Shown: positions 1-27,337 of the stretch, piece after piece
Layout of the letters: every line of letters begins with the position of its first letter
How positions within the stretch are numbered: position 1 is the stretch's first letter
IMG/VR virus record: IMGVR_UViG_3300049021_000015
Location: 1 to 27,337 of that record
DNA from: a virus
Taxonomy: Duplodnaviria > Caudoviricetes
DNA: 27,337 nt
Strand: one strand, 5' to 3'
Program-made: the position numbers and the translations under genes
Notes under the pieces: generated by a model
Seen by the model: the letters and a program-made list of their open reading frames with translations, nothing else
What the model was told of the DNA's origin: nothing
The model's database searches: none

Positions 1-401
1 GCGGCGTACAGGCCGTGGCACCGGGAGCCCCCGCCGGGGTGGGCGGTGCAGTTCTCGACGCCGTGCGCGTGCGCGTCCTCGTCGTAGTTGAAGTCCTTGG
101 GGTCGCACCGGGCGCACTTGCCGTAGTAGCCGCTCTTGGTGCCTGCCCGCATGGGGAAGACGTGGATGCCGTGGGCGGCGTACGCGAGGGCCCACTCCCC
201 GAGGGTCTTTCCTGCGTGGGGGCCACGCAGGACGGTGCCCTTGCCGTCGAGGTATCCGAGGCGGCCGTTGGCGCTCGTGGTCAGATGAGTGCCGTTTGAG
301 GTGTTACCGGGTACCCTGTTACCAATGGTAACTCCGGTAGCCTCGCCTGTTTGTCCCCCTGGAGTTGACAGAGCCTCATCCAGCGGCATAACGTATGTCA
401 C
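1..401 (-). CDS. N-terminal part of a bifunctional DNA primase/polymerase (Prim-Pol); runs off the left edge; not in ORF track
   Basis: Manual translation from GTG at 401 (AGGAG at 413-409): MTYVMPLDEAL...GEWALAYAAHGIHVFPMRAGTKSGYYGKCARCDP...SRCHGLYAA, open to base 1. ALAYAxxGxxVFP and CHGxYAA are typical of actinobacterial Prim-Pol N-termini. Confidence 0.8.
   Translation of the reverse strand, partial: MTYVMPLDEALSTPGGQTGEATGVTIGNRVPGNTSNGTHLTTSANGRLGYLDGKGTVLRGPHAGKTLGEWALAYAAHGIHVFPMRAGTKSGYYGKCARCDPKDFNYDEDAHAHGVENCTAHPGGGSRCHGLYA
365..394 (+). promoter_or_regulatory. Sigma70/HrdB-type promoter facing antisense to the primase gene
   Basis: TTGACA (365-370), 18 nt, TAACGT (389-394); predicted start near 401. 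Confidence 0.6.
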
Positions 402-525
402 GTCAGCGCTCCTATTTGAACTTGAATCGGCGTAGGAACCGCGAGAGCTTCAATGACAGAGCGTCTGGTCCTTGCAGGACCGACACCACGCCCCCGGTCT
501 CTGACCACCGGGGGCTTTGTCGTTT
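401..525 (+). ncRNA. Putative counter-transcribed antisense RNA (~120 nt) covering the primase RBS and leader
   Basis: Bounded by the + strand promoter at 365-394 and the + strand terminator at 490-525. Internal hairpin GGTCCT-TGC-AGGACC (467-481). No credible ORF. Confidence 0.5.
490..525 (+). terminator. Intrinsic terminator on the + strand
   Basis: GCCCCCGGT (490-498) / ACCGGGGGC (507-515) stem followed by TTTGTCGTTT on +. Confidence 0.65.
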
Positions 526-542
526 CTGCTCTCGCGCGCCCA

Positions 543-571
543 AGGGTACGCGGTTGATCGTCTGATGTCAA
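543..571 (-). promoter_or_regulatory. Promoter for the primase-helicase gene
   Basis: Minus strand TTGACA (571-566), 17 nt, TACCCT (548-543). Confidence 0.65.
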
Positions 572-579
572 TCGGCGTG

Positions 580-798
580 TCAACCGTCGAGGATGTGGAC
601 CCCGAACCAGGTGGCGAATCCCGCCCATACCACCCCGAACACCCACCGCCCGGCACGGGTGTTGACCCTGAACCAGCGCCGCGTGGACTCCGATAGGGTG
701 TCTCCGGGGCGCGCGTTCTTCAGTGCGTAGACCTCGAACGCGGCCCCGGCGAGAAGCAGCCCGCCCCATACGGCGTTCGCTGCTGACGAGGCGTCCAT
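580..798 (-). CDS. Small membrane protein (72 aa), lysis region
   Basis: Start reassigned to ATG 798 (MDASSAANAVWGGLLLAG), coupled to the upstream stop; two hydrophobic segments. Confidence 0.75.
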   Translation of the reverse strand: MDASSAANAVWGGLLLAGAAFEVYALKNARPGDTLSESTRRWFRVNTRAGRWVFGVVWAGFATWFGVHILDG

Positions 799-1058
799 CA
801 CGGGCCGCCGAACACCTGGACCAGCAGCGGGATGGCCGTACCGATGAGCGCGGCGGCGCCCGAGGCCATCCACACCCGCTTCTCCAGTGCCGTGACCCTG
901 ATCTCCAGGGCCGCGATGTCGGCACCGTTGCGCACGCCTTCAGCGGTCAGCAGGTCCAGCTTCCCGTTGACCTGGGCGAATTCCTTCTGCATCTCTCCCC
1001 CGAGCTTGGTGATGGCCAGCTCGACGACGAGGTCAGACGTGTTGTCCGGCGCCATCAC
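798..1058 (-). CDS. Coiled-coil protein with C-terminal membrane anchor (lysis accessory/holin-like)
   Basis: DIAALEIRVTALEKRV followed by a hydrophobic C-terminus; start/stop overlaps with both neighbours. Confidence 0.75.
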   Translation of the reverse strand: MMAPDNTSDLVVELAITKLGGEMQKEFAQVNGKLDLLTAEGVRNGADIAALEIRVTALEKRVWMASGAAALIGTAIPLLVQVFGGP

Positions 1059-1968: not shown

Positions 1969-2400
1969 TCAGTAGTCCCAGGTGGTGGCGCTGAACTGCG
2001 CCTGGGTGACCGCTACGGCCTCGGTGTGGTCGTGCCAGACCTCGACCCCGACTGCCTGTCCGGCCCGGCCGTAGAAGGGCCAGACGGTGGTGTGGAAGTC
2101 CTTACCGGCGGTGTCCGTCTGGTCGGTGGAGCCGGTGTCGTCGTGGATGCCGAAGGGGTCGCGGACGAACCGGGCGGCGAACTGCCGCTGCCGGGTGTCG
2201 AACGGCGGCAGGGTGATCGCGTCCCAGCTGACGTTCCGGGCCCACAGGAAGTCGCCGTTGTAGGGCGGGACGATCAGGCACATTCCCTGCTGCATCGAGT
2301 CGTCGTTGCGGATGACGGTGTCGTACGTCAGCAGCGTCCACTCGCCGGGCGGTATGACCTGCGGGGTGTTCTTCCGCTGGAGCTTCGTTTGCGTGGCCAT
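1969..2400 (-). CDS. Hypothetical virion/tail-associated protein (143 aa)
   Basis: Start reassigned to ATG 2400 (MATQTKLQRK) just after the upstream stop; beta-rich; lies between tail and lysis genes. Confidence 0.7.
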   Translation of the reverse strand: MATQTKLQRKNTPQVIPPGEWTLLTYDTVIRNDDSMQQGMCLIVPPYNGDFLWARNVSWDAITLPPFDTRQRQFAARFVRDPFGIHDDTGSTDQTDTAGKDFHTTVWPFYGRAGQAVGVEVWHDHTEAVAVTQAQFSATTWDY

Positions 2401-2408
2401 GACAAGCC

Positions 2409-2930
2409 TTATCCGACGCGCTGGTAGGAGATGAAGGATCGGGACAGGAGGTCCGTGGCCGTGGCGTTGGACGTGCCCTGTGCCCACTGGAACTGCACGG
2501 TCCCCGCCGTCGCCGAGACGATGAGGAGACCCGACTCGTAGATGGCCGCCGCGTTCGCGTCGCCGATCTGGTAGGTCTGCGCCGTGGTCCAGTTACGGCC
2601 GCTGACTCGGACGTTCGTGTCCGTCTCGGACGTGTACGTGGCCGAGTTCGAGGTGGGGCCGTGGCACATCCTCAGCCCGGTCGCACCGGCCGGGATCGAC
2701 CAGGCGGACTGGAAGTCCGGGGTGAGGCTGGTGGACTGGGGGAAGAAGTGCGCCTCGATCCGGTAGACAGCGTTCGCCTCCACATCGAAGAACAGCTCGT
2801 CGTCGTTCTGAGGCGTCGCGTTGGACGTCACGCTCTCTGTCGTCAGCTTGCGCACCACGTTCAGCTGTCCCGAGGTGAGCAGGGACGCGGTGAGCTTCCG
2901 CCCGGCCAGAAAAGTGGGGTATACGGACAC
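2409..2930 (-). CDS. Minor tail/fibre-like protein (173 aa)
   Basis: N-terminal YPTFLAGRKLTASLL pattern typical of actinophage minor tail proteins; GGAGG RBS. Confidence 0.7.
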   Translation of the reverse strand: MSVYPTFLAGRKLTASLLTSGQLNVVRKLTTESVTSNATPQNDDELFFDVEANAVYRIEAHFFPQSTSLTPDFQSAWSIPAGATGLRMCHGPTSNSATYTSETDTNVRVSGRNWTTAQTYQIGDANAAAIYESGLLIVSATAGTVQFQWAQGTSNATATDLLSRSFISYQRVG

Positions 2931-2939
2931 GATTCCTCC

Positions 2940-5159
2940 TTACAGTCCGATGACGGCTGGGTAGGCCAGGGAGAGGCGGGTCCCGCTGGCGTGGGATTTG
3001 ACGACGCCGTTGATGCTTCTGGTCACGTCGAACGTCTGCGAGAGCGCGGTGCCCACACAGGCGTTGACCCTCATGACCTCGCCGCCGACCCAGATGTCGA
3101 AGGGGAAGTCGTCGGGGTACGTGGCGCTGTCGATCCACCGCGTGGCGCCGACGTCGGTGAGCACGTTCAGCACGGTCGACGTGCTGTTGATCGCTCCGTT
3201 CGTCGAGCAGCCCTCGGTGTCGACGTGTCCGAAGAACTCGTCGTCCAGGGAGGCCACGTTGTGCGGCGTGTACGGCGACGTGGTGTACGTGATGTCGTGC
3301 TCCACCACGCCGATGACCTCGGTGTATCCCTCCACGAGGAGGCCGATGGTGTCCGGCGCCATCCATGCGGGCGGGTTCTCGATGTTGATCCGCTGGCCGA
3401 TGTCCACCGCGAGGGCACCGTTCATCCGCTCGATCGACTCCGTGAACGAGGGGTGACGGAGGTTCACCGAGATCTCCGGGTACCGGGGTTCGTCCACGGT
3501 CCCCAGGTGGACACGCCACATCGCCTGGCTGCCGAGCTGGTCGTCGCTCTCCACGTTGACGGTCACGGAATCGTCGTAGCGTCCGACGCCGTTCGGCGGC
3601 GCCTGGGTCGAGAGCGCGCCCTCGTCCAGCGTCTGCTGGCTGAAGGAGCCTCTGGGGCGCGTGGCGGTGACGTCGTTGCGGGTGTACCGGTCGTCGTCCA
3701 CCGGGTCCAGCGGCATCGAGAGGTGGTGCTGGGAGTAGTCCAGCGTCAGGACCGGGTCCTGGTTGTACATCATGGACTTGTTGATGAAGGCCAGACCGAA
3801 CTGGTCGCGCGGCTCGATGAGGCGGCCCACCTCGGCGGTCTCGCACTCCCGCAGCAGGTCCAGCAGGGTGGACAGCCGCTGTGCGCCCATGGGCTGCTCG
3901 TCGTCCGTGTACGTGGGGATGAGCGTGGACAGGTCCGACTCCTCGGACAGCCGCCGCAGGCGCTCCGAGGGAAGCTCTCCGTTGTATCCGTCGAAGGCGT
4001 CCTCGAAGGCGTCGACGTCGACGGAGCCGAAGACGGTGTAGTGGCCGACGCTGCCGCCCTGGAGGTTGGTGTCGGTGGCCGAGTTGAAGTCGGAGAAGAG
4101 GCTGAGGACGCTGCCCGGCGTCCCCGCGTACGTCGTGGTGCCGCTCTCCTCGATACCCGTGGTGATGGGGATCAGTGCCAGCTTTGCGGTCGTGGTGCCG
4201 CCGGAGGCGCTCATCTGGATGTAGACGCGGTTCCACTGGCCGCCCAGGTTGCTGGAGGTCACGCTGATGAAGGGCGACGTGATGCCGCCGCCGACGAGGT
4301 CGGAGATGATCCGGATGTTGGCGGAGCCGTTCAGGTAGACGCGGTGGCTCTCGTACGTGTCGCTGTTGACCTCGATCTCCATGAGCTGCGTCAGACCAGC
4401 CGGAGCCGTGGGGGTGTAGTAGACGAACTCGACACGCCACTCTTCGGTACCGCTGTCGGGCACGGGCACACGCAGCTTGCAGACCTGCGTCTCCAGGGCG
4501 TTGGTCGACAGGATGGTGGGCAGCGGCCCGGAGCCGGGGAGGGTGTCGTTGCTCGCGTAGTCGAAGTTGATGGTCTTCGCCGCCACGTTGCCCTCGACGG
4601 CCGACGCGGCGGACGTGGCTTCCGAGCCGTCCTCAAGCGGCCAGTAGCCCACCGGGTTGGCGGTGGTGATGGCCCGGAACAGGGCACTCTTCAGAGGCGC
4701 CTGGCCCTGTCCCAGGCGCCGCATGACGCCGCCTGCCTCGATCTCCACCCACACGTCTTTGCCGCTGGTGTCCCACTTCGACGGCCACGCGCTGATCTCT
4801 CCGTAGAAGCGGAACCGCCGCACGCCGTTGCGGACCACGCTCACGCGCACGGGGGTGTTGCGCCCGATCAGGCCGTAGTAGGCCCCGGTCGGGTTGCGCG
4901 GGCTGAACCGGCCGTCGCGGTTGTTGATGGTGAACTGGCAGCTGGAGGGGCTGATCTGTGACGCCTCGTCGGACTTGCCACGCGTGATGGTGATGCGGTC
5001 GCGGTAGTAGACGTAGGACGTGATGTCGACCCACGTGTCATCCAGGTACAGCTCCACCAGGGGATGCGTGGCGTTCGCGTACGCCCAGCCGCCGGAGGTG
5101 GGGCTGGACCACCCTCCGGGCTTCTCAAGCCACGATGCGACGCGTGCCGCTCTCGACAT
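2940..5159 (-). CDS. Large minor tail/baseplate protein (739 aa) with LamG-like region
   Basis: WVDIT...ITITRG...NNRDGRFSPRNP N-terminus, PVGYWPLEDG motif, position downstream of the tape measure. Confidence 0.8.
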   Translation of the reverse strand: MSRAARVASWLEKPGGWSSPTSGGWAYANATHPLVELYLDDTWVDITSYVYYRDRITITRGKSDEASQISPSSCQFTINNRDGRFSPRNPTGAYYGLIGRNTPVRVSVVRNGVRRFRFYGEISAWPSKWDTSGKDVWVEIEAGGVMRRLGQGQAPLKSALFRAITTANPVGYWPLEDGSEATSAASAVEGNVAAKTINFDYASNDTLPGSGPLPTILSTNALETQVCKLRVPVPDSGTEEWRVEFVYYTPTAPAGLTQLMEIEVNSDTYESHRVYLNGSANIRIISDLVGGGITSPFISVTSSNLGGQWNRVYIQMSASGGTTTAKLALIPITTGIEESGTTTYAGTPGSVLSLFSDFNSATDTNLQGGSVGHYTVFGSVDVDAFEDAFDGYNGELPSERLRRLSEESDLSTLIPTYTDDEQPMGAQRLSTLLDLLRECETAEVGRLIEPRDQFGLAFINKSMMYNQDPVLTLDYSQHHLSMPLDPVDDDRYTRNDVTATRPRGSFSQQTLDEGALSTQAPPNGVGRYDDSVTVNVESDDQLGSQAMWRVHLGTVDEPRYPEISVNLRHPSFTESIERMNGALAVDIGQRINIENPPAWMAPDTIGLLVEGYTEVIGVVEHDITYTTSPYTPHNVASLDDEFFGHVDTEGCSTNGAINSTSTVLNVLTDVGATRWIDSATYPDDFPFDIWVGGEVMRVNACVGTALSQTFDVTRSINGVVKSHASGTRLSLAYPAVIGL

Positions 5160-5202
5160 GTTTCACCTCCTGTGTCTCCGGACTCCTACCGATCAAGATC
5201 AC

Positions 5203-5715
5203 TCACTCCGACCACCGGATCCACGTGCGCATGTCAACCGCAGTGGTGGGTGTCGTGGCCCTGACACGCAGGAAGGACGAGGTGTCGATGATCGGCCGCT
5301 CGTCCGGCATCCACTGGTACGAGTAGGTGTACGGCGACTCAGACGTGGTCGAGCTGAGCGCGACGACATCGAACGCGCGGGTCGCGGTCGTCGAGCCCTC
5401 CGCCGACGCCGTGTAGCCGGTGTTGGCCGTACCCAGGGTGAGGAGCGATGCCGGGGAGTCCGGGTCCAGCGGCTGCACACCGGCCGCCACGTGCGCGGTG
5501 ACGGTGGCCGCGACGTCCGTCTGGATCAGCTCGATCACGCCGTCCGCGCCGGAGGTGTCGTCGATGGTGAAGCCCCAGGCGATGAGTTCGATCTTCCGGG
5601 TTGCCGGAGTGGACAGCTGAAGCATGGTCTTGATGGCCGTACCGGTGGTAACGGATGCCTGAGCTGCGGTAGTTGCCATGGCCGAGTTCCAGGCCGTGTA
5701 GCGGTGGGCGCCCAT
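5203..5715 (-). CDS. Hypothetical tail-region protein (170 aa)
   Basis: AGGAG RBS, Thr/Ala-rich, high-GC3 codons, directly after the tape measure. Confidence 0.75.
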   Translation of the reverse strand: MGAHRYTAWNSAMATTAAQASVTTGTAIKTMLQLSTPATRKIELIAWGFTIDDTSGADGVIELIQTDVAATVTAHVAAGVQPLDPDSPASLLTLGTANTGYTASAEGSTTATRAFDVVALSSTTSESPYTYSYQWMPDERPIIDTSSFLRVRATTPTTAVDMRTWIRWSE

Positions 5716-5727
5716 GTCTGTATCTCC

Positions 5728-7779
5728 TTACTGGCCTAGAGTTGCCTGGACATTGCCGCCCTGTCGGCGGACTTCTCCTCGCACGAGGTCGACCACGATG
5801 CGGCCCACGCTCGAACCGCCCAGGTGGACGTCGAGGTTGAGGTACTTCGCTCCGCCGCCCCCGCCCCCACCGAGCAGGCGGGCGCTGTCCTCGGTGCTGC
5901 GGACCATCGAGCCGTTCGGCAGGTTGACCAGCTCGGGGCCGCGCTCACCGACGAGCGCCATGCCGCTGGCGAGACCGCCTCGGGCCAGGAACGGGACGTT
6001 CGGGGTGCTCCAGCTGCCGCCGCCCCAGGTGGTGCCGAGGATCTCGACGGACGGCCACGTCCAGCCCAGGTTGTTCCACCAGCCGATGATCGCGTTGATG
6101 GACGCCTTGAAGCCTGTCTTGAAGGCGTCCCACATGCCCGACGCGGCCTTCTTGATCCGGTCGGGGAGATCCTTGATCGACCCGATGAAGTCGTCCCACA
6201 TGTCCCCGACGGGCTCGGCGACGTAGTCGTCCCACAGGTCGCTGAACCAGTCGCCGATGGCCTCGCCGATGACTTCGAGGTCGTCTCCGACGCTGTCGGC
6301 CTTCTCGCCGAGCCACTCGGTGAAGGCGTCCCACCACTCGGGGAGCTTCTCCGTCAGGACCTCGATCAGCTTCTTGACGAACCCGGCCACGATGAGGACC
6401 ACGACGGCGCCGATACCGGCCGCGATGAGGGCGGGGAGGAGCAGGAAGGCGGTGATGATCGCGACCGAGATCAGGGCGATCTTCAGGGCCTCCATCGGGT
6501 TCTCGGTGATGTAGTTGGCGATGTCCTCACCGAGTCCGGCGAGTCCCTCGGCGATCTTCGGGAGGAGTTCGGTGAGCTTCTCCTTGATCTTCTCTCCGAG
6601 GTTCCCGAAAGCGTTGACGATCTGATCGCCCAGGCCATCGCTGCCCTTACCGGCCTCCGTCCAGATCTCGGAGAAGTTCTCCGTCACGAACGACTTGAAG
6701 TCCGCCAGGGCCGGGATGACCGTGTCGCCCAGGAAGTTCACGAGCTTCTGTTCGAGCTTGCGCTTGAACGCGTCGAGCTTGGCGCCTGCGTTGTCGCGCA
6801 GGGCATTGCCCAGCTTGTCCGTGGCGCCCTTGGCCTTGTCCATGCCCGACGCGGCGGCGGCGGTGGCCGGGTCGAGGGCGTACAGGGAGTCGCCCATGAC
6901 GTTGGCCGGGTCGCCGAACAGGGCCGCTGCGGCGTTGAGCTTGACCTGCTCGTCCTTGGTGCCGCGCAGGGCGTTCAGGGTCATGGTGAGCGCCTCTTCG
7001 GCGCTCTTGCCGCCCTGACCCAGCTTGGCGGCCATCTCGTCCGCGCTCAGGCCGATGCTGGCGTATGCCTCGTCGACAGCGGTGCCGCCTGCGAGGGCGC
7101 GCTCACCGAACTGGCCGAGCGCGTCGGCCACCTGGTCGGCGTCGCGGGCACCGCCCTTGAGGCCCTGGGAGATCAGCCCGGTGGCCGTCGCCCCGTCGAT
7201 GCCCATGCGCTTGAACTGGACCGAGTATTCGTTGATGGTGTCGAGGAAGTCCTCGGACTTGTTGGCGCCCGACTGCATGCCCTTGGTGATGATGTCGAAC
7301 GCCTCGTCGGCGTTCTTCGCCAGGCCCGTGCGCATGAGCTGGCTGACGGCGTTGGTGACGCTGCCGAGATCCTCGTCGAAGGTGGTCGCCAGGTCGGCGA
7401 CCTTCGTCGACATGCCCTTCAGCTGCGCGTCGGTCGCGTCCGTCGGCAGCAGACCGGCCTGCATGATCTTCTGGATCGTGTCGGCCGCGCCCTGGACGTC
7501 GGTGGTGATGCCGTCGGCGTACAGCTGGCCCGCGACCTTGCCGTACTTCTCGGCCTCGGCCGGGGTCGCCCCGAGCTGGGCACCCAGCTTGCCGACGATC
7601 TTGCCCTGGTCGAGGGCCTTGGTGACCCCGGCGACCAGCAGGGCGCCAGCCGCCGCACCGGCTCCCGCGAGGATGCCGCCGATGTTCTGGCCGAAGGAGG
7701 AGACGCTCTGCTCGGCGGATCCGAGACCCTGTGCCGTGTTGTCCTGCGCCGTGACGTTGATCTGGACGTTATTGGTCAT
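5728..7779 (-). CDS. Tail tape measure protein (683 aa)
   Basis: Ala/Gly-rich helical protein, DFLDTINEYSVQF minor-tail motif, central hydrophobic segment, Trp periodicity, VGERGPELV near the C-terminus. Confidence 0.92.
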   Translation of the reverse strand: MTNNVQINVTAQDNTAQGLGSAEQSVSSFGQNIGGILAGAGAAAGALLVAGVTKALDQGKIVGKLGAQLGATPAEAEKYGKVAGQLYADGITTDVQGAADTIQKIMQAGLLPTDATDAQLKGMSTKVADLATTFDEDLGSVTNAVSQLMRTGLAKNADEAFDIITKGMQSGANKSEDFLDTINEYSVQFKRMGIDGATATGLISQGLKGGARDADQVADALGQFGERALAGGTAVDEAYASIGLSADEMAAKLGQGGKSAEEALTMTLNALRGTKDEQVKLNAAAALFGDPANVMGDSLYALDPATAAAASGMDKAKGATDKLGNALRDNAGAKLDAFKRKLEQKLVNFLGDTVIPALADFKSFVTENFSEIWTEAGKGSDGLGDQIVNAFGNLGEKIKEKLTELLPKIAEGLAGLGEDIANYITENPMEALKIALISVAIITAFLLLPALIAAGIGAVVVLIVAGFVKKLIEVLTEKLPEWWDAFTEWLGEKADSVGDDLEVIGEAIGDWFSDLWDDYVAEPVGDMWDDFIGSIKDLPDRIKKAASGMWDAFKTGFKASINAIIGWWNNLGWTWPSVEILGTTWGGGSWSTPNVPFLARGGLASGMALVGERGPELVNLPNGSMVRSTEDSARLLGGGGGGGAKYLNLDVHLGGSSVGRIVVDLVRGEVRRQGGNVQATLGQ

Positions 7780-8014
7780 CGAACCCTCCTCCCTCCTTGT
7801 CGTCCCGCTTGGGGTTGCCTCGGGTGTAGATGTTCAGGAGCCGCAGCAGCTCGGCGTCCTCCTGGTAGAGCTGGCTGGGCAGGCAGCCGAAGCGCTCGCA
7901 CAGCCCGATCACGAACTCGGCGTGGGCTAGCTCGCCAGGCTTGGTGACAGGGAGACCGTGCTGATCAACTCCTCCGGGGATTGCGGCCCAGAGGTCGAGG
8001 GCTTGTCCAAAGGG
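7769..8014 (-). CDS. -1 frameshift extension of the tail assembly chaperone (gpGT-like)
   Basis: The -1 frame is open from the slippery site to TAA at 7769: FGQALDLWAA...VIGLCERFGCLPSQLYQEDAELLRLL. Confidence 0.7.
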   Translation of the reverse strand, partial: PFGQALDLWAAIPGGVDQHGLPVTKPGELAHAEFVIGLCERFGCLPSQLYQEDAELLRLLNIYTRGNPKRDDKEGGGFDDQ

Positions 8015-8331
8015 GCCGGGACCTCGCTCGTCGCCCGGATCCACTCGCCCATGATGTCGACGAGCATGTCCATGTCCTGCTCCTGGACGCCCTCGTAGGT
8101 CGCGGGGACGTGGGTGCCGTCGGGGCGGCAGACGTTCCACTCGACGAGGTTGCGCGCGAAGATCCTGAAGATCTTCTCGACGGTCTCGACGTTCTTCGAC
8201 GTCTGAGCGGCCTGGACGGTCAGGATCTCGCCCAGGGCCAGGGCGTTCATGACGACGACGAGGCCCTTGTAGTCAGTGCTGTCGTCGAAGTTGAGCGTGT
8301 ACTTCTTGCGATCCGGGATGAAGTCCGGCAT
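7927..8331 (-). CDS. Tail assembly chaperone (gpG-like)
   Basis: Between tail tube-like and tape measure genes; LVEWNV motif; in-frame slippery heptamer. Confidence 0.8.
   Translation of the reverse strand: MPDFIPDRKKYTLNFDDSTDYKGLVVVMNALALGEILTVQAAQTSKNVETVEKIFRIFARNLVEWNVCRPDGTHVPATYEGVQEQDMDMLVDIMGEWIRATSEVPAPLDKPSTSGPQSPEELISTVSLSPSLAS
8008..8014 (-). other. Programmed -1 ribosomal frameshift site C CCT TTG
   Basis: X XXY YYZ heptamer in the correct reading frame of 7927..8331. Confidence 0.7.
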
Positions 8332-8363
8332 GGGTTCCCTCCAGGGAATCTGTCAGGTACCTG

Positions 8364-8768: not shown

Positions 8769-8771
8769 GGG

Positions 8772-18865: not shown

Positions 18866-19171
18866 TCAGAGTGACGACCGGGTCTTTCGCTCACCGTCGC
18901 CCTGCATGAAGGTCCGGGCGAACTCCCACGCGGTCTCGTTCTGGGGGACCTTCAGCTCCACCCTGCTCGGAAGCTCGATGGGGAGGTCCGGACGCCATGA
19001 CGCCCAGTGCTCGTCGTTGCTGGAGTACGCGTCGCAGGACGGACACCACGTCCCGAGCACCACGGGTGACCCATCGGCGAACACCATGTACACGCGGATC
19101 GTAAGCCCGCAGGTGGTGCACCAGGGCCGGGCTCCCGACCTCCACGCCAGCTGAGTCGGTCGTCGATTCAT
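18866..19171 (-). CDS. Small CxxC-CxxC protein (101 aa)
   Basis: WCTTCG and WCPSCD; TGATG coupling to the upstream gene; followed by a terminator. Confidence 0.7.
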   Translation of the reverse strand: MNRRPTQLAWRSGARPWCTTCGLTIRVYMVFADGSPVVLGTWCPSCDAYSSNDEHWASWRPDLPIELPSRVELKVPQNETAWEFARTFMQGDGERKTRSSL

Positions 19172-19881
19172 CAGTTCTCCTGCGTCTTCTGGAGGGTCTC
19201 GGCGTTCTCCTGGAGGCGCTCCTTGGCGATCTCCAGCGCCCGGCGGGCGGTCCAGTCGGACACCCCGTACGTCTTCATCACGGTGGAGCGGCCGGGCAGG
19301 GGCTCCCCGTTGGCGACCAGCTTCTCCACCAGGGTCTCCTGGTCGATCACCAGCCCCTCCAACGCACGCTCCAGCGTCGTCTGGGGCTCCTCCTGGAGGG
19401 GCGGCTCGAAGGCTGGAGGCGGCGGTGCGGGCAGCTCCTGCATCTGGTCGTACACCGGCGTGACCTGCGGCTGGAGGGCCTCCAGCTCCCCCTCCACGGG
19501 GGCTGGAGAGACCTGGAGGGGAGCCTCCTCGACGGCATCAGGGCGGTGACCCCACAGCAGGCCGTGCACCCGCCACAGGATGAGCGGCGCCACGCTGGAG
19601 ACCCCGATCACCACCCACGCCGTCATCTCCAGGAACTCGCTGGAGAGGAGGTGGGAGGTCGCCACCATCACCAGGAGGACACCCACCGCGAGGGCGGTGT
19701 CCCGTCGCTCCCGCAGAGCCACGAGCACGTACGCATCCAGCGCCGCCGGGAGGCACCAGGCCATCCCTCCAAAGCCGCACGCCACCGCCAGGTCGTACTC
19801 CGCCGACGCGGTGGAGGCGGCGCACACCAGATAGACGATGGTTCCGATGGTCTTGTTGGCCGCTACACTTCGTACTTGCAT
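19171..19881 (-). CDS. Multi-pass membrane protein with C-terminal HTH-like tail (SpdA/DUF2637-like)
   Basis: Start reassigned to ATG 19881 (GAAAGGG RBS); about four TM segments (TASAEYDLA...LPAALDAY...APLILWRVH), Pro/Glu linker, GRSTVMKTYGVSDWTARR. Confidence 0.65.
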   Translation of the reverse strand: MQVRSVAANKTIGTIVYLVCAASTASAEYDLAVACGFGGMAWCLPAALDAYVLVALRERRDTALAVGVLLVMVATSHLLSSEFLEMTAWVVIGVSSVAPLILWRVHGLLWGHRPDAVEEAPLQVSPAPVEGELEALQPQVTPVYDQMQELPAPPPPAFEPPLQEEPQTTLERALEGLVIDQETLVEKLVANGEPLPGRSTVMKTYGVSDWTARRALEIAKERLQENAETLQKTQEN

Positions 19882-19950
19882 GGGTTCCCTTTCGAGGGGA
19901 TCTACCGGCCCGGACCCCGATGCGGGGGTCCGGGCCACTTTCATATCAGG

Positions 19951-20088
19951 TCACTGGTGCGGGCAGTCGGATACCCACCAGCCGCACTGCCCGCAGTAGG
20001 TCGCCGGGCCGTACGAGGGGCCGTGCGGGCATGAGGTGCGGAACCAGCCCCCGCAGGCCACGCAGAAGTAGTTCAGGAGCTTCTTCAC
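19951..20088 (-). CDS. 45-aa microprotein with two CxxC...CPH repeats; not in ORF track
   Basis: GGAGG RBS, GTG overlapping the upstream stop: MKKLLNYFCVACGGWFRTSCPHGPSYGPATYCGQCGWWVSDCPHQ. Confidence 0.75.
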   Translation of the reverse strand: MKKLLNYFCVACGGWFRTSCPHGPSYGPATYCGQCGWWVSDCPHQ

Positions 20089-20525
20089 GACGCCTCCTTC
20101 TGCGGGGCCTTGTCGAGCCACACCAGGTGCGTCCTGGCCGGATCACGCGGGTCACGCACCTTCAGCACACGGGCCTTACCGATGCGCCCCTTCTCGATCT
20201 CAAGCTCCTGACCAGCCTCTTCGTCTTCGAGGGGAGGGGCCTCGGTGGGGGAGGGGAGGGCTTGGTCCGTACCAACCTCGACGTCGGCGAAGACGCCCAC
20301 CGCAACGAACCAGCCAGCCGGGAGGACGTACGGCAGGGCGCCCAGCGCCCACAGCGTGCCGCCCCCGAACCATAGGACGGCCACCGTCCCCGCCGCCCGC
20401 GTGGCGACCAGACCGGCCCGCTTGCCGCCGGTCTCCGCCTTCGCCGCCTGGTACCACCACAGACGCCAGGCCGTGTTCGCCGTCCCCGACCACATCACGC
20501 GGCCCATCACACGGAAGCCGTTCAC
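20085..20525 (-). CDS. Membrane protein (146 aa)
   Basis: Start reassigned to GTG 20525 (GTGA overlap); two hydrophobic segments and a charged C-terminus. Confidence 0.7.
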   Translation of the reverse strand: MNGFRVMGRVMWSGTANTAWRLWWYQAAKAETGGKRAGLVATRAAGTVAVLWFGGGTLWALGALPYVLPAGWFVAVGVFADVEVGTDQALPSPTEAPPLEDEEAGQELEIEKGRIGKARVLKVRDPRDPARTHLVWLDKAPQKEAS

Positions 20526-21025
20526 GCGAACACCCCCGTGAAGACGACGCCCATGCCGTTCACGGCGGAGGCGAGCGGGATGGCGGCGGCACCGGCGATC
20601 GATCCCGACAGGCCCAGCCCGCACCCGGCGATGAAGCCGCCGAGCACCTTCCACTTCGAGATCTTCGAGAACTTGAACAGGGCCACCAGGACCACCGTCA
20701 ACAGGAACAGGATCACGTACCCGCCAGGGGTGAGCACGATCTGCTGGGCCCGCGTCACGTCCTGGTTCGAGCCTCCGACGCCCCACACCAGGCCGATGTA
20801 CCCGGCCAGGTTGTTCACCCACAGGGCGCCCCAGGAGACCGCCCCCAGGCCCGACCAGGCGCCCGCCGTGCCGAGGATCGCGAGGATCCCGTACGCGATC
20901 GAGAGGCAGAAGGAGATGATCTTCTTGGGCTTGTGGCCCTCCTTGATCCACCAGTGCATGGCGAACCAGATGATGATGCCGGTCGCGGCTGCGATCCCCG
21001 CAAGGGATACAGTCGTGTAGTTCAT
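20522..21025 (-). CDS. Multi-pass membrane protein (167 aa)
   Basis: Start reassigned to ATG 21025 (MNYTTVSLAG); four to five Gly-rich hydrophobic segments. Confidence 0.75.
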   Translation of the reverse strand: MNYTTVSLAGIAAATGIIIWFAMHWWIKEGHKPKKIISFCLSIAYGILAILGTAGAWSGLGAVSWGALWVNNLAGYIGLVWGVGGSNQDVTRAQQIVLTPGGYVILFLLTVVLVALFKFSKISKWKVLGGFIAGCGLGLSGSIAGAAAIPLASAVNGMGVVFTGVFA

Positions 21026-21090: not shown

Positions 21091-21408
21091 TCAGCTGAGC
21101 AGCAGCCTGTAGGTGAAGGCCACGTCGTACATCTTGTGGACCGGGCCGTCCAGGTCTTCGCCCTTGTCGAACGCCCTGGCGATGGCGATCCAGGTCTCCA
21201 TCAGCCGTTCCAGCGCGTGCTCGTGGGCGTGGTGGGCCATCGTCATGTAGAACGCCCCGGCCGCCGGGAGCAGAGCGCAGTCCGCGTGGCCGTCCAGCGG
21301 GCACGAGCGGTGCTTCCGCACCTCACGCAGCAGGACCGCCTCGGCGTCGATACGGTTCGTGCCCGGCGTCATCGAGCGGATGACCCGGTCGAAGCTCTCA
21401 GGCCGCAT
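21091..21408 (-). CDS. Hypothetical protein (105 aa)
   Basis: GGGAG RBS, operon packing, high GC3. Confidence 0.65.
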   Translation of the reverse strand: MRPESFDRVIRSMTPGTNRIDAEAVLLREVRKHRSCPLDGHADCALLPAAGAFYMTMAHHAHEHALERLMETWIAIARAFDKGEDLDGPVHKMYDVAFTYRLLLS

Positions 21409-21637
21409 CTCCCACCTCGCAGTAGATGCAGCCCGGCGTCGGGTCGATGGTGGGCAGGTGGCGGACGACGTGCTCGACGCGCTGCTCGACCTTCTTCAGG
21501 CCCGTGGTCAGGCGCCGGTCCAGCTCCTCTATGGCGCGGGCGGTCTGGGAGTCCCCGACGAAGACGTTCTCCTCGCCGTCACGGTCTCCGTACATGGTGA
21601 ACTCGGTGATGCGGTCCGGGTTCTCGTTGCGGTGCAT
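21398..21637 (-). CDS. Hypothetical protein (79 aa)
   Basis: Start reassigned to ATG 21637 (AAGGGG RBS); C-terminal H...GCIYC. Confidence 0.65.
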   Translation of the reverse strand: MHRNENPDRITEFTMYGDRDGEENVFVGDSQTARAIEELDRRLTTGLKKVEQRVEHVVRHLPTIDPTPGCIYCEVGDAA

Positions 21638-21653
21638 GGGTTCCCCTTCTGGG

Positions 21654-22295
21654 TTATGCGGCGTTCTTGCCGATCTGCCGTTCGGCTTCCAGCACGTCGT
21701 CCTGGAAGCGGCGCAGAATCTCCGAACAGGCCATGTACTCCTCGGCACATGCCTGCGTCTGGCAGTCGTCCCACAGGTCGTTCAGGTGCAGGACGATCTG
21801 GTCCGGCAGGGACGTGATGACGTCCTTGACGTGCTCCTTCAGGCGGGCCTCTCCGTACGCCTCGGTGTAGCTGGCGACGTGCTGCGCGCAGTGCGTGCGC
21901 AGGGCGGCCATCACCTTCACGTACACCTTGGGGCGCGAGGTGTCGAACAGCGGGGCGTCCTGACGGGAGCCGTTGACCGACTCGTGCAGGACCGCCATGT
22001 TGAACAGCTCGCCGCCCATCTCCCGCGCCCGCAGGGACGGGGTGAGGTCCAGGAACGGCTTCTTGTGGCCACGGCGCATGGCCGCCCGCTGCTTCTCGCG
22101 GACCTCCAGGGCGGCCGTCAGGTGCTCGACCAGGTCCTCGGCGGCCTGGCGGGTCATCCGGGCGGTGCCGTAGGGCTGGCCCTCGGGGTCGCGCAGGCGG
22201 ACGACGACGGTCTCGCCACGGTCGGCGGTCCACACGTCCTGGCAGTTGTCGAAGTAACGGCCGTTGCCCCAGTGCTGCTGTATCAGGGAGATCAC
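21654..22295 (-). CDS. Hypothetical protein (213 aa)
   Basis: Start reassigned to GTG 22295 (GGAGG RBS, GTGA overlap). Confidence 0.7.
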   Translation of the reverse strand: MISLIQQHWGNGRYFDNCQDVWTADRGETVVVRLRDPEGQPYGTARMTRQAAEDLVEHLTAALEVREKQRAAMRRGHKKPFLDLTPSLRAREMGGELFNMAVLHESVNGSRQDAPLFDTSRPKVYVKVMAALRTHCAQHVASYTEAYGEARLKEHVKDVITSLPDQIVLHLNDLWDDCQTQACAEEYMACSEILRRFQDDVLEAERQIGKNAA

Positions 22296-22687
22296 GACGC
22301 CTCCTGGAATCGCTTGGCCACTTCCACGTGGTGGTCGGACACGGCGGCACGGACCCAGCGGTAGCGCTCGGGCTCCGGCATCACCAGACGGGCCTTGAAG
22401 CCACGCGGGTTCTCCGGGCTCAGGGTGTGTCCGGGGTAGTCGTTGAGCGTCTCGTCGGCCATGAGTTCGTCGTACGACGCCTCCTGGTAGCTGCCAACCT
22501 CGATGTCGTGCCGCTGGCTGTAGAGCGCCCCCGGCTTGAAGTCGCTCGCGCGCAGCGACCAAGTGCTGATCGAGATGGTCGTGCAGAGGTCGATCTCCTC
22601 CGTCACAAGACCAGCGAAGCGGCCCTCGATCACGGTCGTCCGCTTGATGTACCCGTCCTGCTCGACTATGTCGTCACTAATGTTCAC
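22292..22687 (-). CDS. Hypothetical protein (131 aa)
   Basis: Start reassigned to GTG 22687 (GGAGG RBS, GTGA overlap). Confidence 0.7.
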   Translation of the reverse strand: MNISDDIVEQDGYIKRTTVIEGRFAGLVTEEIDLCTTISISTWSLRASDFKPGALYSQRHDIEVGSYQEASYDELMADETLNDYPGHTLSPENPRGFKARLVMPEPERYRWVRAAVSDHHVEVAKRFQEAS

Positions 22688-22953
22688 GACGCCTCCTCGG
22701 GGTGCGTGTTCGAGTAGCTGTTCGCCTCGAAGGTGGTGCGCTCGCCGCAGAGACGGTCGAGGGCCTGAGACTGAGTGGTGTACGGCGTCATGCCGCAGGC
22801 TTCGATGGAGTCGCGGACGGCCTGGTGACACTCGGAGCAGACGAGGACGTCCACGGTCAGGGAGCCGTGGGCGCGGCCGTTGCGGGGGCTGTAACCCTCC
22901 ACGGCCATCCGCGCCTTGTTCAGGCAGATGCCGACGCGGTCGAAGGTGATCAC
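22684..22953 (-). CDS. Hypothetical protein (89 aa, CSECH motif)
   Basis: Start reassigned to GTG 22953 (GGAGG RBS, GTGA overlap). Confidence 0.65.
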   Translation of the reverse strand: MITFDRVGICLNKARMAVEGYSPRNGRAHGSLTVDVLVCSECHQAVRDSIEACGMTPYTTQSQALDRLCGERTTFEANSYSNTHPEEAS

Positions 22954-23195
22954 TTCGCCTCCTTCCTCGTAAAGCAGATGAATGTGCCGTCGTCGGCCAG
23001 CTGCGTCTGGAGCGTGAAGCCGTGTCGGCGGGCGTGGTTGCGTGCCACCGACTGGAAGACCCGCGTCGTGGTCTGGTAGTCGGAGCCCTGCTTGAGGTGC
23101 CACCACTCGCCGTCGGTCCAGTCGTTCCATGGGTAGACACCCCTGGCCCCAGGCTTGGGCTTAGTGACCCGCGTGGGGTCGGCGTGTTGTGCCAT
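22950..23195 (-). CDS. Small basic protein, first gene of the early operon (candidate regulator)
   Basis: 81 aa, YPWNDWTDGEWWHL; leaderless promoter directly upstream. Confidence 0.7.
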   Translation of the reverse strand: MAQHADPTRVTKPKPGARGVYPWNDWTDGEWWHLKQGSDYQTTTRVFQSVARNHARRHGFTLQTQLADDGTFICFTRKEAK

Positions 23196-23201
23196 GGGGA
23201 T

Positions 23202-23230
23202 AGCGTATCAACTGGCGTGTCGATTGGCAA
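23202..23230 (-). promoter_or_regulatory. Leaderless promoter of the early operon
   Basis: TTGCCA (23230-23225), 17 nt, TACGCT (23207-23202), 6 nt, ATG; no RBS. Confidence 0.65.
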
Positions 23231-23371: not shown

Positions 23372-24349
23372 TCATGACAACTCTTCCAACTTCTCTGCGA
23401 TCGAAGCACCGACCGTGTAGGCAGGGCTGTTGGTCAGCCTGTTACGTGCGCGGTCATAGCGTCGTGTAGTACGAGGATCCTTGTGATCCACCGCGTCCTG
23501 CACCACATGCAGCGCAGCTCCCTTGTCCAGCGCATCCGTGATGAACCCGTGACGCAGCACGTGAGGGTGGATGGTGTCCGCCTGCGGTAGCCCTGCACGC
23601 TTGGCCAGGCGCCTCAGCATCTTCCATGCCTCAGGCTCCCCCATACGGGCCCCTGAGCTGGTGATGAACAGCGGGCCCTCGGTGCGTCCATCGAGGTACT
23701 CATCGATCGCGTGAGACGTGATGGGAGGCAGCGCCTTCTTCGAGGTGCCCCCACCCTTGAGGCGCACCGTGATCGTCCTGTGCCCCTTGTCGTAGCCCAG
23801 GCTGTCCACATCGGCGCCCAGTGCCCCATCGATGCGCAGGCCCACGGTGTAGAGCAGCATGCACAGGGCGTAGCTGCGACGGCTGCTCTTGTGGGCCGTG
23901 ACCAGCAGCAGGGCCATCTCGTCCTCGGTGAGGCCCTCGGTGTCCGAGTGGTCCACGTCCACGGTGGGGCGCTCGACGCCGTCGAAGGGGTTGTAGTCCA
24001 CGACGCGCAGGCGCTTGGCGTACTTGTAGAAGCTGGAGGCCACAGAGAGGTACTGGGCGCCCGAGGTGTTCTTCCCGCCGTCCAGGGAGCGTCCGTACGC
24101 CTCGGCGTGCGGGTAACCCGCCTGCATGGGGTGAACGTCCACCGAGCGGCAGAACGCCTCCCAGCGCTTGAAGCCCCGGACGTACGACTTACGGGTGTTG
24201 GCCGACTTCTTCGACGTGATCCACATCGAGACGAGACGCGGCAGGTCGTCGCTGTACGTCTGTTCGAGTTCGCGCCGGGCGCGCTCGGACTCGACCGGCT
24301 CGACGGCCGTCGTTTCGGTACCCGCGTAGGGCTCAAGTGCTGTGCTCAT
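23372..24349 (-). CDS. Tyrosine recombinase, XerC/D-like (SAM-like N-domain plus catalytic domain)
   Basis: GLRIDG (R), LKGG (K), HPHVLRH (HxxR), DHKDPRTTRRYD (H, Y); KSANTRKSY N-domain; start reassigned to ATG 24349. Confidence 0.92.
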   Translation of the reverse strand: MSTALEPYAGTETTAVEPVESERARRELEQTYSDDLPRLVSMWITSKKSANTRKSYVRGFKRWEAFCRSVDVHPMQAGYPHAEAYGRSLDGGKNTSGAQYLSVASSFYKYAKRLRVVDYNPFDGVERPTVDVDHSDTEGLTEDEMALLLVTAHKSSRRSYALCMLLYTVGLRIDGALGADVDSLGYDKGHRTITVRLKGGGTSKKALPPITSHAIDEYLDGRTEGPLFITSSGARMGEPEAWKMLRRLAKRAGLPQADTIHPHVLRHGFITDALDKGAALHVVQDAVDHKDPRTTRRYDRARNRLTNSPAYTVGASIAEKLEELS

Positions 24350-24356: not shown

Positions 24357-24376
24357 AGGATAACGGACATTATCCT
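24357..24376. other. dif-like candidate recombination site AGGATAA-CGGACA-TTATCCT
   Basis: Perfect 7-bp inverted arms around an asymmetric 6-bp spacer with an ATAA-N6-TTAT core. Confidence 0.6.
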
Positions 24377-24513: not shown

Positions 24514-24557
24514 ATGACAACGTTGTCAAGCCTGGGCCGTCCCGACAACGTTGTCAT
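24514..24557. repeat. Two copies of palindrome GACAACGTTGTC
   Basis: 24516-24527 and 24544-24555; further copies at 11595-11606 and 14824-14835. Confidence 0.85.
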
Positions 24558-24652
24558 GTTGAAAGTTCAACTATGCGAACTCGACTGCGTGAGGTAATTG
24601 AAGATTCAACTAAACGGACTTCTCCACTCAAGGTGGTTGAAAGTTCAACTAT
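24558..24652. repeat. Three TTGAA-NN-TTCAACTA palindromic repeats at 39-bp period
   Basis: TTGAA starts at 24559, 24598 and 24637; copies 1 and 3 are identical over 17 bp. Confidence 0.85.
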
Positions 24653-24760
24653 TCGGACCTTCGCTGCGCCCGGTTGGAGGATCGTACAAAGATCAGAAAA
24701 GTTTGGGATTCGCTTGACATCTCCTGCGGCTTACGGCGCGCGATTTGTCCTGCCACCCTT

Positions 24761-25060
24761 CCCTGTCACACCCACCCGGCAGCCGTCACACCCCCTGTCA
24801 CACCCCCCTGTGACGCCCATCGCCGCAGGTCAGGTGCCCCTGTCACAGGCGTCGCGGGGTGTCACACCCCTAAACGGCTGGGGGCGTCATACACACACCC
24901 ACTACTCCTCTCTTTTGTTCTCCCGCGCATACACTCTTGGAGTTAGGGGTGTGACGGGGTGTGACACGGCCTCTGACCTGCATAAAGACCGTCGCACCCC
25001 CCCTGTGACAGGGGGTGTGACACCCCCGTGACAGGGGTGTGACAGGCACGCTCAGTCACC
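24761..25060. repeat. Iteron-like GTCACA/TGTGAC array, probable replication origin
   Basis: About 12 copies, mostly GTCACA on the left and TGTGAC on the right of an AT-richer core; located downstream of the primase-helicase. Confidence 0.7.
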
Positions 25061-25092
25061 AAGAATCACCCTCTGTAGCCATCTTGGGGCAT

Positions 25093-25121
25093 GAAGAAGC
25101 CCCCACCGAAGCGGGGGCTTC
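25093..25121 (-). terminator. Terminator of the replication operon
   Basis: Minus strand GAAGCCCCCGC-TTCG-GTGGGGGCTTC-TTC directly after 25132..25410. Confidence 0.75.
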
Positions 25122-25131
25122 GTCCGACGGG

Positions 25132-25410
25132 CTACCTGCTGCCCATCGCCTTGTATGCCGCGATCAGCTCTTTCTGATGCAGTCGACGTCCCGCGTCCTG
25201 GCGAGCAGCGTGAATCCGCATCTGAGGGGCGTGTTCACGCGGCGGGAGACCCAGGGCAGCCCTCTTGCGGTCGTACACCGCCAGCCTGGCGTTCTTCCTG
25301 GGGGCATCGCACTCTTCGCCCGGCTGCGCCTTGCATCGAACGCAGTGCAGCCTCATGGCGTACTCGTACGTCGAGTACACCGGCACCTGGGGGTCGTCGC
25401 CCTGGCTCAC
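25132..25410 (-). CDS. Small zinc-finger protein (CxxCxAxPGxxC...HxxR)
   Basis: CVRCKAQPGEEC...IHAARQ; GTGA coupling to the helicase stop. Confidence 0.75.
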   Translation of the reverse strand: MSQGDDPQVPVYSTYEYAMRLHCVRCKAQPGEECDAPRKNARLAVYDRKRAALGLPPREHAPQMRIHAARQDAGRRLHQKELIAAYKAMGSR

Positions 25411-27337
25411 TTGCTCTCCTCGGTGGTGTTGATCGTCATCTGGATGTTGCCGTTGGACTGGGTGGCGGGGACGACCATCCCCTCCTCAGTGGCGAGCGTG
25501 ATGCCCGTGTAGACGCGCATGACCTTGCCGTTGATCCGCTTCTGTCCCTGGGCGATGCCGGGGAAGGCCGCGTAGAGGTCCGTGGCGAACTGGGCGGTGG
25601 TCCCGACGGCCTGCACGTTGTTGACCATGCACCAGCTCTTCCAGGCGGCGAACAGGCTGTCCTTGAGGATCCACTGCCCCTCGCCGCGTACGGCCTGCTC
25701 GTCGACGAACGCCTTGATGGGGGAGGCGTTGTCCCGCTGGGTCTGGAGCGTCTCCATGGCCGAGCCGGGCTGGACGAACCGCCCACGCTCGGTGAGCCGC
25801 TTCAGGCCCTCCAGGGCCCAGTTGAAGATGCCGGGCAGCTCGGTGGTGAGCCGGGCCTCCAGGGTCTCGTCCTCGCGGCCCTCGAAGCTCTGGGTGAACT
25901 GCACGGTGATCCACCGGCTGACGATGGCGCCGGAGACGTCGGAGAACTTCGGGGGCTTGTTGGCGAGGATCATGACGCGGGCGCCGAGCCGTCCCACCCA
26001 TTCTGTGCGGTTCTTGCGGTCGATGGTGATCGAGTCTTCGCCGGTGATCATGAGGAGGCGGGTGACGATGGCGGCGTTGTTGCGGTTCTCCATGTGGGCG
26101 TCGCCGACGACGCACAGGCTCTTGCCGACGAGTCCGGCGAGGCCGAACTGCCGCCCGATGTCGCCGAGCGTGGTGCCGGTGGAGTTCTCCTTGCCGATCA
26201 GCTTCTCCAGGATCCGCGCCACGGTGCCCTTACCGGCACGGGGCGGGCCGATGAGCTGGATGCCCTTCTGGAGGTCGGTGCGGCCCGAGAGGACGTACCC
26301 GGCCCACTCCTGGATGGCCTGGATGGACTCGGCGTCATCGCCGAAGACGAGCTTCAGGAAGCCCAGCCACTGCGGGCATTCGGCCTGGGGGTCGTAGGCG
26401 TACGGCACGGACGTGGTGGTGAAGTAGGCGGGGGTGTGTCCGGTGGTGACCCTGGTGAGGGGGTCGACGAGGGTGTTGCGGCAGGAGATGAGGCCCTTCT
26501 TGCCCGCGCACCCGAGCCAGGATCCGGTCTCCACGCTCTCGTCGAGGTGGGTGACGGCGGAGATGGCGTCGATAAGGTTGCCGATCTTCTTCTGGGTGGG
26601 GTTCCAGGGCTTGAAGAGGGGCTGACCCTTCTTGTCGGCGCCCTGGTAGACGGCGTGTTCCAGCTCCAGATAGAGGCGGGTCTTCAGGGCGGAGGCGCCG
26701 GTCTCGCGCCAGTGGGTCCCCGTCCACTGCATCCACGTCTCGCGCCAGTGGTAGAGGGTCTTGCCCTGGGGGGTGGTCCACAGGGGCTCCAGCTGGCGCG
26801 CGACCTTCATGGGGGCGTCGGGCTCGGCGTGTACGGGCGCGTGGTTGGTGGGGGCGTCCTCGTCGCGGGGCTCCGGGATCTCGACGGTGTCGTTCATGTC
26901 CTGCCCCTTCTGGGCCGTCGAGTTACCGCGAGTAACCCACTGGTATGCCTTGATCGCCTTCCGGCGGGCGCTCGCCACGGTGCCTCGGACCATGGACTCG
27001 TCGTTGTCGGCGTGGAGCCCGGCCTGGGTGAAGATGAACTCGACCTCGTCGTGGTCGATCTGGCCCGCGTTGGCGTACTCGAACGCCTTGACGGCGTTCT
27101 GGAAGAGGACGTTGTTCCGGTGGCCCTGGGGCGCCATGGCCGCCTCGTCGGCGAGCTGGGTGACCCGGTCCTGTACGCCTACCGAGGTCGCGCCTGTGCC
27201 GCCCGTGTACGGCCGGGGGGCGGGCGCCGTGGCCTTCTTGCGCTCGATCTCCTCGACGACCCACATGGGCAGCTCGGGGATCTCCTGCCAGGGGTCGTTC
27301 AGCCACACGTACTGGCCCTTGACCATGGCGGGTCGGC
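25407..27337 (-). CDS. Primase/helicase, P4/D5-like SF3 helicase (5'-truncated at the window edge)
   Basis: Walker A GPPRAGKGT, Walker B LCVVGD, motif C ILANK, GHTPAYFTT...YDPQAECPQW, PriCT-like GHRNNVLF; frame open to the window edge. Confidence 0.93.
   Translation of the reverse strand, partial: RPAMVKGQYVWLNDPWQEIPELPMWVVEEIERKKATAPAPRPYTGGTGATSVGVQDRVTQLADEAAMAPQGHRNNVLFQNAVKAFEYANAGQIDHDEVEFIFTQAGLHADNDESMVRGTVASARRKAIKAYQWVTRGNSTAQKGQDMNDTVEIPEPRDEDAPTNHAPVHAEPDAPMKVARQLEPLWTTPQGKTLYHWRETWMQWTGTHWRETGASALKTRLYLELEHAVYQGADKKGQPLFKPWNPTQKKIGNLIDAISAVTHLDESVETGSWLGCAGKKGLISCRNTLVDPLTRVTTGHTPAYFTTTSVPYAYDPQAECPQWLGFLKLVFGDDAESIQAIQEWAGYVLSGRTDLQKGIQLIGPPRAGKGTVARILEKLIGKENSTGTTLGDIGRQFGLAGLVGKSLCVVGDAHMENRNNAAIVTRLLMITGEDSITIDRKNRTEWVGRLGARVMILANKPPKFSDVSGAIVSRWITVQFTQSFEGREDETLEARLTTELPGIFNWALEGLKRLTERGRFVQPGSAMETLQTQRDNASPIKAFVDEQAVRGEGQWILKDSLFAAWKSWCMVNNVQAVGTTAQFATDLYAAFPGIAQGQKRINGKVMRVYTGITLATEEGMVVPATQSNGNIQMTINTTEESK

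Follow-up and report, generated by a model that had tools for sequence, protein, structure and literature searches.

Phage-plasmids are an established kind of element (PMC7969092, PMC11652158) and are described for actinobacteria (PMC10023795, PMC7157519) and for Streptomyces (PMC4487206). Their sizes cluster at ~50 and 100 kb (PMC11652158). The actinobacterial cases include the extrachromosomal parABS plasmid prophages of cluster A mycobacteriophages, some of which have RNA-based replication control (PMC7157519); PMC13587820 concerns other phages. The DNA analyzed here, referred to as the window, is the whole of the virus record IMGVR_UViG_3300049021_000015 (27,337 bases, 66 to 67% G+C). Its sequence points to a tailed phage with a circular genome of 27,666 bp, whose host is likely a Streptomyces and which is probably a small phage-plasmid without ParAB that lysogenizes without integration (a probability of about 0.6). 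Circular records of similar size with virion genes are already present in PLSDB, and the kind of element is known. The clade itself is apparently undescribed: no description of it was found in the open literature searched. Newly seen are a 12-bp palindrome before the packaging/head and recombinase genes and a swappable helicase and origin segment within the same population.

Circular genome and clade

Matches to Pfam and PHROGs were found for TerL, portal, Clp-type protease, major capsid, head-tail adaptor, major tail, tape measure, amidase and holin, indicating a complete tailed-phage gene set. This bears out the full siphovirus morphogenesis and lysis set that a preliminary description had read from the sequence. 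A gene call guided by GC frame gave 40 open reading frames (ORFs), 100% of them on the minus strand, with a coverage of 93.5%.

Both ends of the window, positions 1 and 27337, lie inside a single replicase gene (primase-polymerase/helicase). The gap from 27337 to 1 was bridged by contigs L009 and L001 (99.9% identical) together with L010, which add 329 bp and result in the 27,666-bp circle. In run X1, a possible source sample, a 25,567-bp contig and a 2,160-bp path closed the same circle. No terminal repeat was found inside the window, and the closure came from other contigs. The dif-like site described below was spanned by single contigs in four of five DNA runs (X1, X6, X16 and X14), the coverage in X13 being almost nil, and no loose contig end was located at this site among those listed for the four runs. 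An integrase with attL/attR junctions, as in an integrating prophage or an actinomycete integrative and conjugative element (AICE), was not found in the contigs and relatives checked. Of the earlier proposal that the element may lysogenize as an autonomous circle, the circular form, the size of about 28 kb and the lack of a host junction are supported by independent contigs and by relatives, within the limit that contigs lose rare junctions. Homologous elements also occur on their own: the relatives G001 (28,371 bp) and G002 (29,424 bp) are complete circular records with direct terminal repeats.

At least 96% of the sampled words of the window were present in 17 DNA runs of soil or rhizosphere samples, which represent 14 studies (10 being possible source runs). 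Megablast against phages and plasmids returned endolysin matches only. The host is likely a Streptomyces, judging from the virion genes, which resemble those of the Streptomyces phage Dagobah, the endolysin, and the named homologues of the recombinase and of one membrane protein.

The clade was delimited by a marker gene (22950 to 23195), for which 29 clusters were found, all on contigs no longer than 36,232 bp and four of them on contigs of 28 to 29.4 kb. For ORF 20522, 23 clusters at 64% identity or more were located on contigs of up to 28,041 bp, and homologues of ~50% identity were found on long Streptomyces contigs. All carriers of the clade are metagenomic, with no isolate assembly among them. 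This contig-size pattern fits non-integration and, equally, a lytic life.

Replicon, predicted antisense unit and recombinase

Candidate plasmid-type functions of the window comprise a replicase with a cognate repeat array, a predicted antisense unit and a probable resolvase cassette. The replicase (886 aa, minus strand) contains Prim-Pol, D5_N and P4-type primase domains. Its 5' part (3 to 401) runs on through the 329-bp gap into position 27337, and its 3' part (25407 to 27337) encodes a linker and a D5/P4-type helicase. Prim-Pol replicases are found in phages and AICEs too. An array of converging TGTCAC(ACCCC) repeats is located at 24760 to 25050, separated from rep by a single 92-aa ORF, and contains 9 of the 13 TGTCAC copies of the window. 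The top 6-mer of the array occurs 11 times, compared with a mean of 4.1 and a maximum of 9 in 1,000 shuffles, which is beyond chance and confirms the iteron-like array previously noted beside the primase-helicase. The array is likely the replication origin. Each of L004, L007, L003, L018 and a 16-kb Streptomyces virginiae plasmid has its own distinct repeat unit directly behind its own replicase, and these replicases are of at least three types. The combination of repAB with an adjoining iteron is a demonstrated Streptomyces theta-replicon design (PMC3583192).

The repeat array, the 92-aa ORF and the helicase half of rep form a swappable segment (24758 to 26859, minus strand). An alternative path of 2,094 bp in X1, X6 and X16 and of 2,039 bp in X14 coexists with that of the window in these four soil runs. 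The non-window path was the deeper one in X1 (110 versus 45) and X16 (48 versus 8). The switch point coincides with the end of the similarity between the L004 replicase and that of the window. The alternative path had no match among viral contigs. We infer that it contains another helicase half and origin and that the two are swapped as one unit. Small ribbon-helix-helix-like ORFs follow the origin in L003 (1395 to 1556), L004 (8358 to 8555) and L007 (8740 to 8919); no counterpart was found in the window.

Promoters were searched with a Streptomyces-type consensus pattern; a generic sigma-70 scan caught the terminator and missed the antisense promoter. The window has 4 matches to the Streptomyces-type pattern, at rep, the antisense unit, the recombinase and the early operon, compared with 0.3 in shuffles. 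The predicted rep promoter (543 to 571, minus strand) reads TTGACA-17-TACCCT and is followed by a strongly folded leader. On the plus strand, a predicted counter-transcribed RNA unit (365 to 525) has its promoter at 365 to 394, within the first rep codons, and its terminator at 490 to 525, 100 to 125 nt downstream. The RNA (~401 to 525) would cover the rep leader and ribosome-binding site. Fold z-scores were -2.9 for the antisense RNA and -4.8 for the rep leader. At the sequence level, a promoter and a terminator antisense to the rep leader are present as expected of a counter-transcribed RNA. The promoter pair and the leader hairpin are conserved in both complete relatives, G001 and G002, the replicase of G002 being non-homologous, and the antisense pair proposed earlier over the replicase ribosome-binding site is thereby supported as a prediction. 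The Rfam scan assigned no family to the antisense RNA and found nothing else. Two further lines were set aside. RNAalifold on three antisense regions gave 9 compensatory pairs of 30 with a covariation term near zero, which was too thin to be counted. RNA runs X18 to X20 gave short contigs over the recombinase gene, and X20 also over the rep leader, but these were unstranded and perhaps derived from DNA.

The Xer-like tyrosine recombinase (23372 to 24349, minus strand, 325 aa) has only a SAM-like and a catalytic domain and belongs to the Pfam integrase family. It did not reach the cut-offs for XerC (102 versus 329.6 bits) or XerD (100 versus 335 bits), and its best PDB match is XerD. Identity is 40 to 50% to its best matches on Streptomyces plasmids, compared with 31 to 34% to phages. 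The dif-like site AGGATAA-6-TTATCCT (24357 to 24376, minus strand) overlaps the -10 element of the recombinase promoter (24386 to 24357). The form GGATAA-6-TTATCC precedes the recombinase in L003, G001 and G002 and in four of four close plasmid records, so that the described dif-like site in the recombinase's own promoter is both present and conserved. G001 and G002 also carry a small ribbon-helix-helix-like ORF.

Homologues of the recombinase were found in 22 of 401 Streptomyces genomes (24 matches). With a widened site pattern, all 17 loci fetched out of these 24 matches had exactly one two-armed site, 42 to 1,606 bp upstream of the recombinase; a stricter pattern had 0 matches in 510,971 control bases. 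Several homologous cassettes are on chromosome-scale contigs, within islands or prophage-like regions, and in L178 a large serine recombinase lies beside the cassette at the element edge. The cassette is likely not the integrase of such chromosomal elements. Because it is found on Streptomyces plasmids and intact inside prophages with other integrases, the recombinase is probably a dimer resolvase, and independent contigs and relatives support this multimer-resolution role, which had been suggested at the outset. In the partial relative L018, a small serine resolvase (PF00239) occupies the recombinase slot and the dif-like site is absent. Wherever a relative includes this region, the slot is occupied, the enzymes coming from two unrelated families. 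No second recombinase was found among the 44 window ORFs scanned with Pfam and PHROGs, nor in G001 and G002 with the queries used.

The stretch at 24564 to 24652, between the recombinase promoter and the origin, contains three repeats resembling AGTTCAACTA along with several TGTCA half-sites, all of them possible accessory sites. One chromosomal homologue, of 67% identity, lies in a low-GC island (G050:C49, 1 to 31000; L165-L166) that also contains genes for Cas3, HNH and an Spd-like product and the CRISPR genes GSU0053/GSU0054. A truncated Mg-chelatase gene, presumably comM-like, marks where the island ends.

The 12-bp palindrome GACAACGTTGTC has four exact copies in the window, where 0.06 would be expected with one mismatch. 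One is inside the adaptor gene (11595 to 11606), another lies within the protease gene, ~150 bp ahead of the capsid gene (14824 to 14835), and two (starts 24516 and 24544) are upstream of the recombinase (24516 to 24555). Each of five relative loci has two to four copies, invariably located upstream of the resolvase gene and close to the TerS, protease/capsid or adaptor genes. A control set of 585,554 bases had only 3 copies, each of them within one of two related prophages. The palindrome looks like an operator. A host regulon was considered and rejected: the 14-mer occurred twice in five Streptomyces genomes, once in a related prophage, indicating no broad regulon. The literature search on the palindrome returned unrelated papers only. 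A second palindrome, TTGACG-6-CGTCAA, was not significant (4 matches; shuffle mean 1.2, maximum 4).

The early operon (21091 to 23230, minus strand; promoter 23230 to 23202) begins with the marker gene. Its 81-aa product had no match resembling a helix-turn-helix (HTH); the structure model (predicted local distance difference test, pLDDT, 80) had no PDB match at E<=0.001, and unnamed viral proteins were the only look-alikes. A role of this protein as repressor or binder of GACAACGTTGTC found no support from structure matches, although distant relatives are possible. It is further disfavored because GACAACGTTGTC occurs in prophages of genomes where the marker was not found.

Lifestyle and rival explanations

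In the proposed mechanism, the Prim-Pol/helicase would fire at the repeat array behind the replicase, and an antisense RNA of ~120 nt over the rep leader would limit both copy number and the output of replicase. By itself, the Xer-like recombinase would convert dimers to monomers, using the single symmetric site that its promoter contains. Without ParAB, stability would come from several copies per multinucleoid hypha and from the SpdA-like membrane protein, and a protein binding GACAACGTTGTC would gate the packaging and head genes.

Several observations weigh against a phage-plasmid. GTDB gave no match to the marker gene, none of the 29 marker clusters had an NCBI isolate source, and PLSDB had no close match to the virion genes; this absence from isolates is the main doubt. 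Among the 44 ORFs, neither a CI/Cro or other repressor nor ParAB was identified, in agreement with the preliminary description. A circular assembly is equally expected from terminally redundant virion DNA, and assembled contigs lose rare variants as well as junctions. Distant virion relatives (TerL 49 to 60%) sit in large chromosomal contigs of Streptomyces, of which L073, L075, L079, L101 and L102 carry an Spd-like gene and L071 an FtsK-like gene. Recombinase homologues of 62 to 67% identity are on Streptomyces chromosomes, and the recombinase and site cassette, being also part of chromosomally integrated elements, is not exclusive to plasmids. The earlier argument that such genes are plasmid hallmarks is weakened accordingly: neither the Spd-like genes nor the resolvase cassette are diagnostic.

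The lack of isolate assemblies and of a recognizable repressor or ParAB, the location of all genes on one strand, and the high flat depth in soil runs, which suits virions or active infection, would all agree with a phage of lytic or carrier-state habit whose ancestor was a phage-plasmid. In such a phage the plasmid-type replicon would serve theta replication in infection, with no stable maintenance. This is unlikely, given the resolvase slot kept by two unrelated enzyme families, the conserved predicted antisense control of rep, and the intact TraB gene of two complete relatives, which helps only DNA persisting in a living donor. Integration by the tyrosine recombinase at a dif-like site of the host, the circle being the attP-bearing extrachromosomal form, is improbable. 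The exact-match site pattern occurs in only 3 of the 401 Streptomyces genomes, all recombinase carriers, with no orphan copy as a candidate attB. Chromosomal site copies are single and intact, and in five annotated loci adjoin the recombinase with no flanking pair; in L018, the serine resolvase takes the place of the recombinase. Integration would nevertheless account for the Pfam family of the recombinase, its similarity (31 to 34%) to annotated integrases of Gordonia and Arthrobacter phages and its close homologues on chromosomes, and rare junctions can hide from contigs. A plasmid whose virion module is defective or depends on a helper is very improbable. Its model would be pSAM1, which has the same recombinase and site and made up <0.01% of virion reads under one condition (PMC11302927), and the tape measure of the window is short (683 aa), with no tail fibre recognized among the window ORFs. 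The virion ORFs are, however, all intact, syntenic over 14 genes with those of the cultured siphovirus Dagobah, and conserved in relatives at 57 to 79%.

A phage-plasmid that lysogenizes as a free circle remains the preferred reading. In a wider and doubtful extension, the clade (at least 29 marker clusters) may be a soil phage-plasmid family of ~28 kb with lysogeny without integrase, ParAB or classical repressor, in which helicase and origin cassettes are swapped under shared antisense-RNA control and some members, besides spreading as virions, move through the mycelium of Streptomyces by TraB conjugation. If true, the clade would offer a compact model for plasmid-phage interconversion in Streptomyces, with TraB gained or lost, and would supply Streptomyces vectors with new small replicons and a self-sufficient site-specific recombinase.

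Membrane and virion genes and known systems

The membrane cluster (19171 to 21025, minus strand) comprises an SpdA-like membrane and HTH protein (19171 to 19881), a Cys-rich ORF (19951 to 20088) and two membrane ORFs (20085 to 20525 and 20522 to 21025). ORF 19171 was matched (0.92) to an Atlas cluster that bears the name "transfer protein spdA", and its HTH end resembles the DUF2637 proteins of L003 and L018. The two membrane ORFs had no family match, one of them also having no match in plasmids, and the Spd-like ORFs showed no similarity to SCP2 membrane proteins. The Spd-like cluster described earlier therefore stands for one of three membrane ORFs. SpdA2 of pIJ101, a possible counterpart of the ORF 19171 product, contributes to stability and recognizes a palindrome (PMC4170104).

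Between the marker gene and TerS, G001 and G002 have an FtsK/TraB gene and a membrane gene. Their TraB-type FtsK scored above the PF01580 cut-off and has 28% identity over 86% to the transfer gene of Streptomyces lividans plasmid NC_001387. TraB is described as the one gene crucial to Streptomyces plasmid transfer (PMC4447253). The window lacks an FtsK-type TraB gene by Pfam and PHROGs, and with it the mark of a conjugative plasmid or AICE; the window, L003 and L018 have the membrane cluster instead. The window element would thus spread by virions only, and the TraB-carrying relatives could conjugate too. In L071, L073, L075, L079, L101 and L102, the Spd- or FtsK-like gene lies just upstream of the terminase in prophage-like regions of the same virion lineage.

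Virion and lysis functions are encoded entirely on the minus strand. The lysis region (580 to 1959) contains a small membrane ORF, a coiled-coil ORF, the holin (1055 to 1267) and an amidase endolysin (1264 to 1959). The tail module (1969 to 10796) includes a tail-tip protein (2940 to 5159), the tape measure (5728 to 7779), the major tail protein (9200 to 9946) and further, unassigned ORFs syntenic with Dagobah. ORF 8364 to 8768 resembles (~30%) the major tail protein over the N-terminal half of the latter, and Dagobah has both. The head and packaging region (10793 to 18739) encodes the adaptor, the major capsid protein (13307 to 14677), the Clp protease (14674 to 15423), the portal (15420 to 16691), TerL (16894 to 18216) and, by position and HTH, a probable TerS (18218 to 18739).

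Dagobah (MT711977, Streptomyces) is the closest cultured virion module, with the same gene order and identities of 52% for the capsid and 46% for TerL. It is a siphovirus predicted by software to be temperate (PMC7650747). Unlike the window, it is 47 kb long with 1.2-kb terminal repeats, and the recombinase, site and antisense module were not found there.

Two small circular plasmid records, both complete genomes, are phage-like. NZ_CP053567 (Pseudonocardia, 27.4 kb) has virion genes, Prim-Pol and primase (37%), FtsK, DUF2637 and a recombinase, and NZ_CP108470 (Streptomyces, 36.7 kb) has virion genes, a recombinase (46%) and the site. Both, known by annotation, differ in an annotated ParA or AAA ATPase and in other capsid and terminase genes, and fall outside the clade. 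The circular S. virginiae plasmid L011 (NZ_CP108186, 16.3 kb) has Prim-Pol, primase, recombinase, DUF2637 and terminase with no capsid annotated, and is a possible plasmid-borne phage satellite.

The window recombinase has 26% identity over 192 aa to SCP2.07c, which we take to be MrpA, and belongs to a separate clade. As tyrosine recombinases with a role in plasmid resolution, MrpA/mrpS of SCP2 (PMC3218068) and the chromosomal XerC/D are comparable to it. The pZL12-type plasmid-phages pSLE1 and pSAM1 are circular Streptomyces elements with phage genes that share the recombinase (50%) and the dif-like site with the window; for pSLE1, synteny with pZL12 has been described (PMC4487206). Elements of this type are 86 to 90 kb with ParA/ParB, whereas the window element is 27.7 kb without ParAB and has a Prim-Pol/D5 replicon and an unrelated virion module. 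The cluster A plasmid prophages are likewise defined by parABS, which the window lacks. Known actinobacterial plasmid prophages rely on parABS, and a 28-kb ParAB-free clade with exchangeable replicons would stand in contrast to them.

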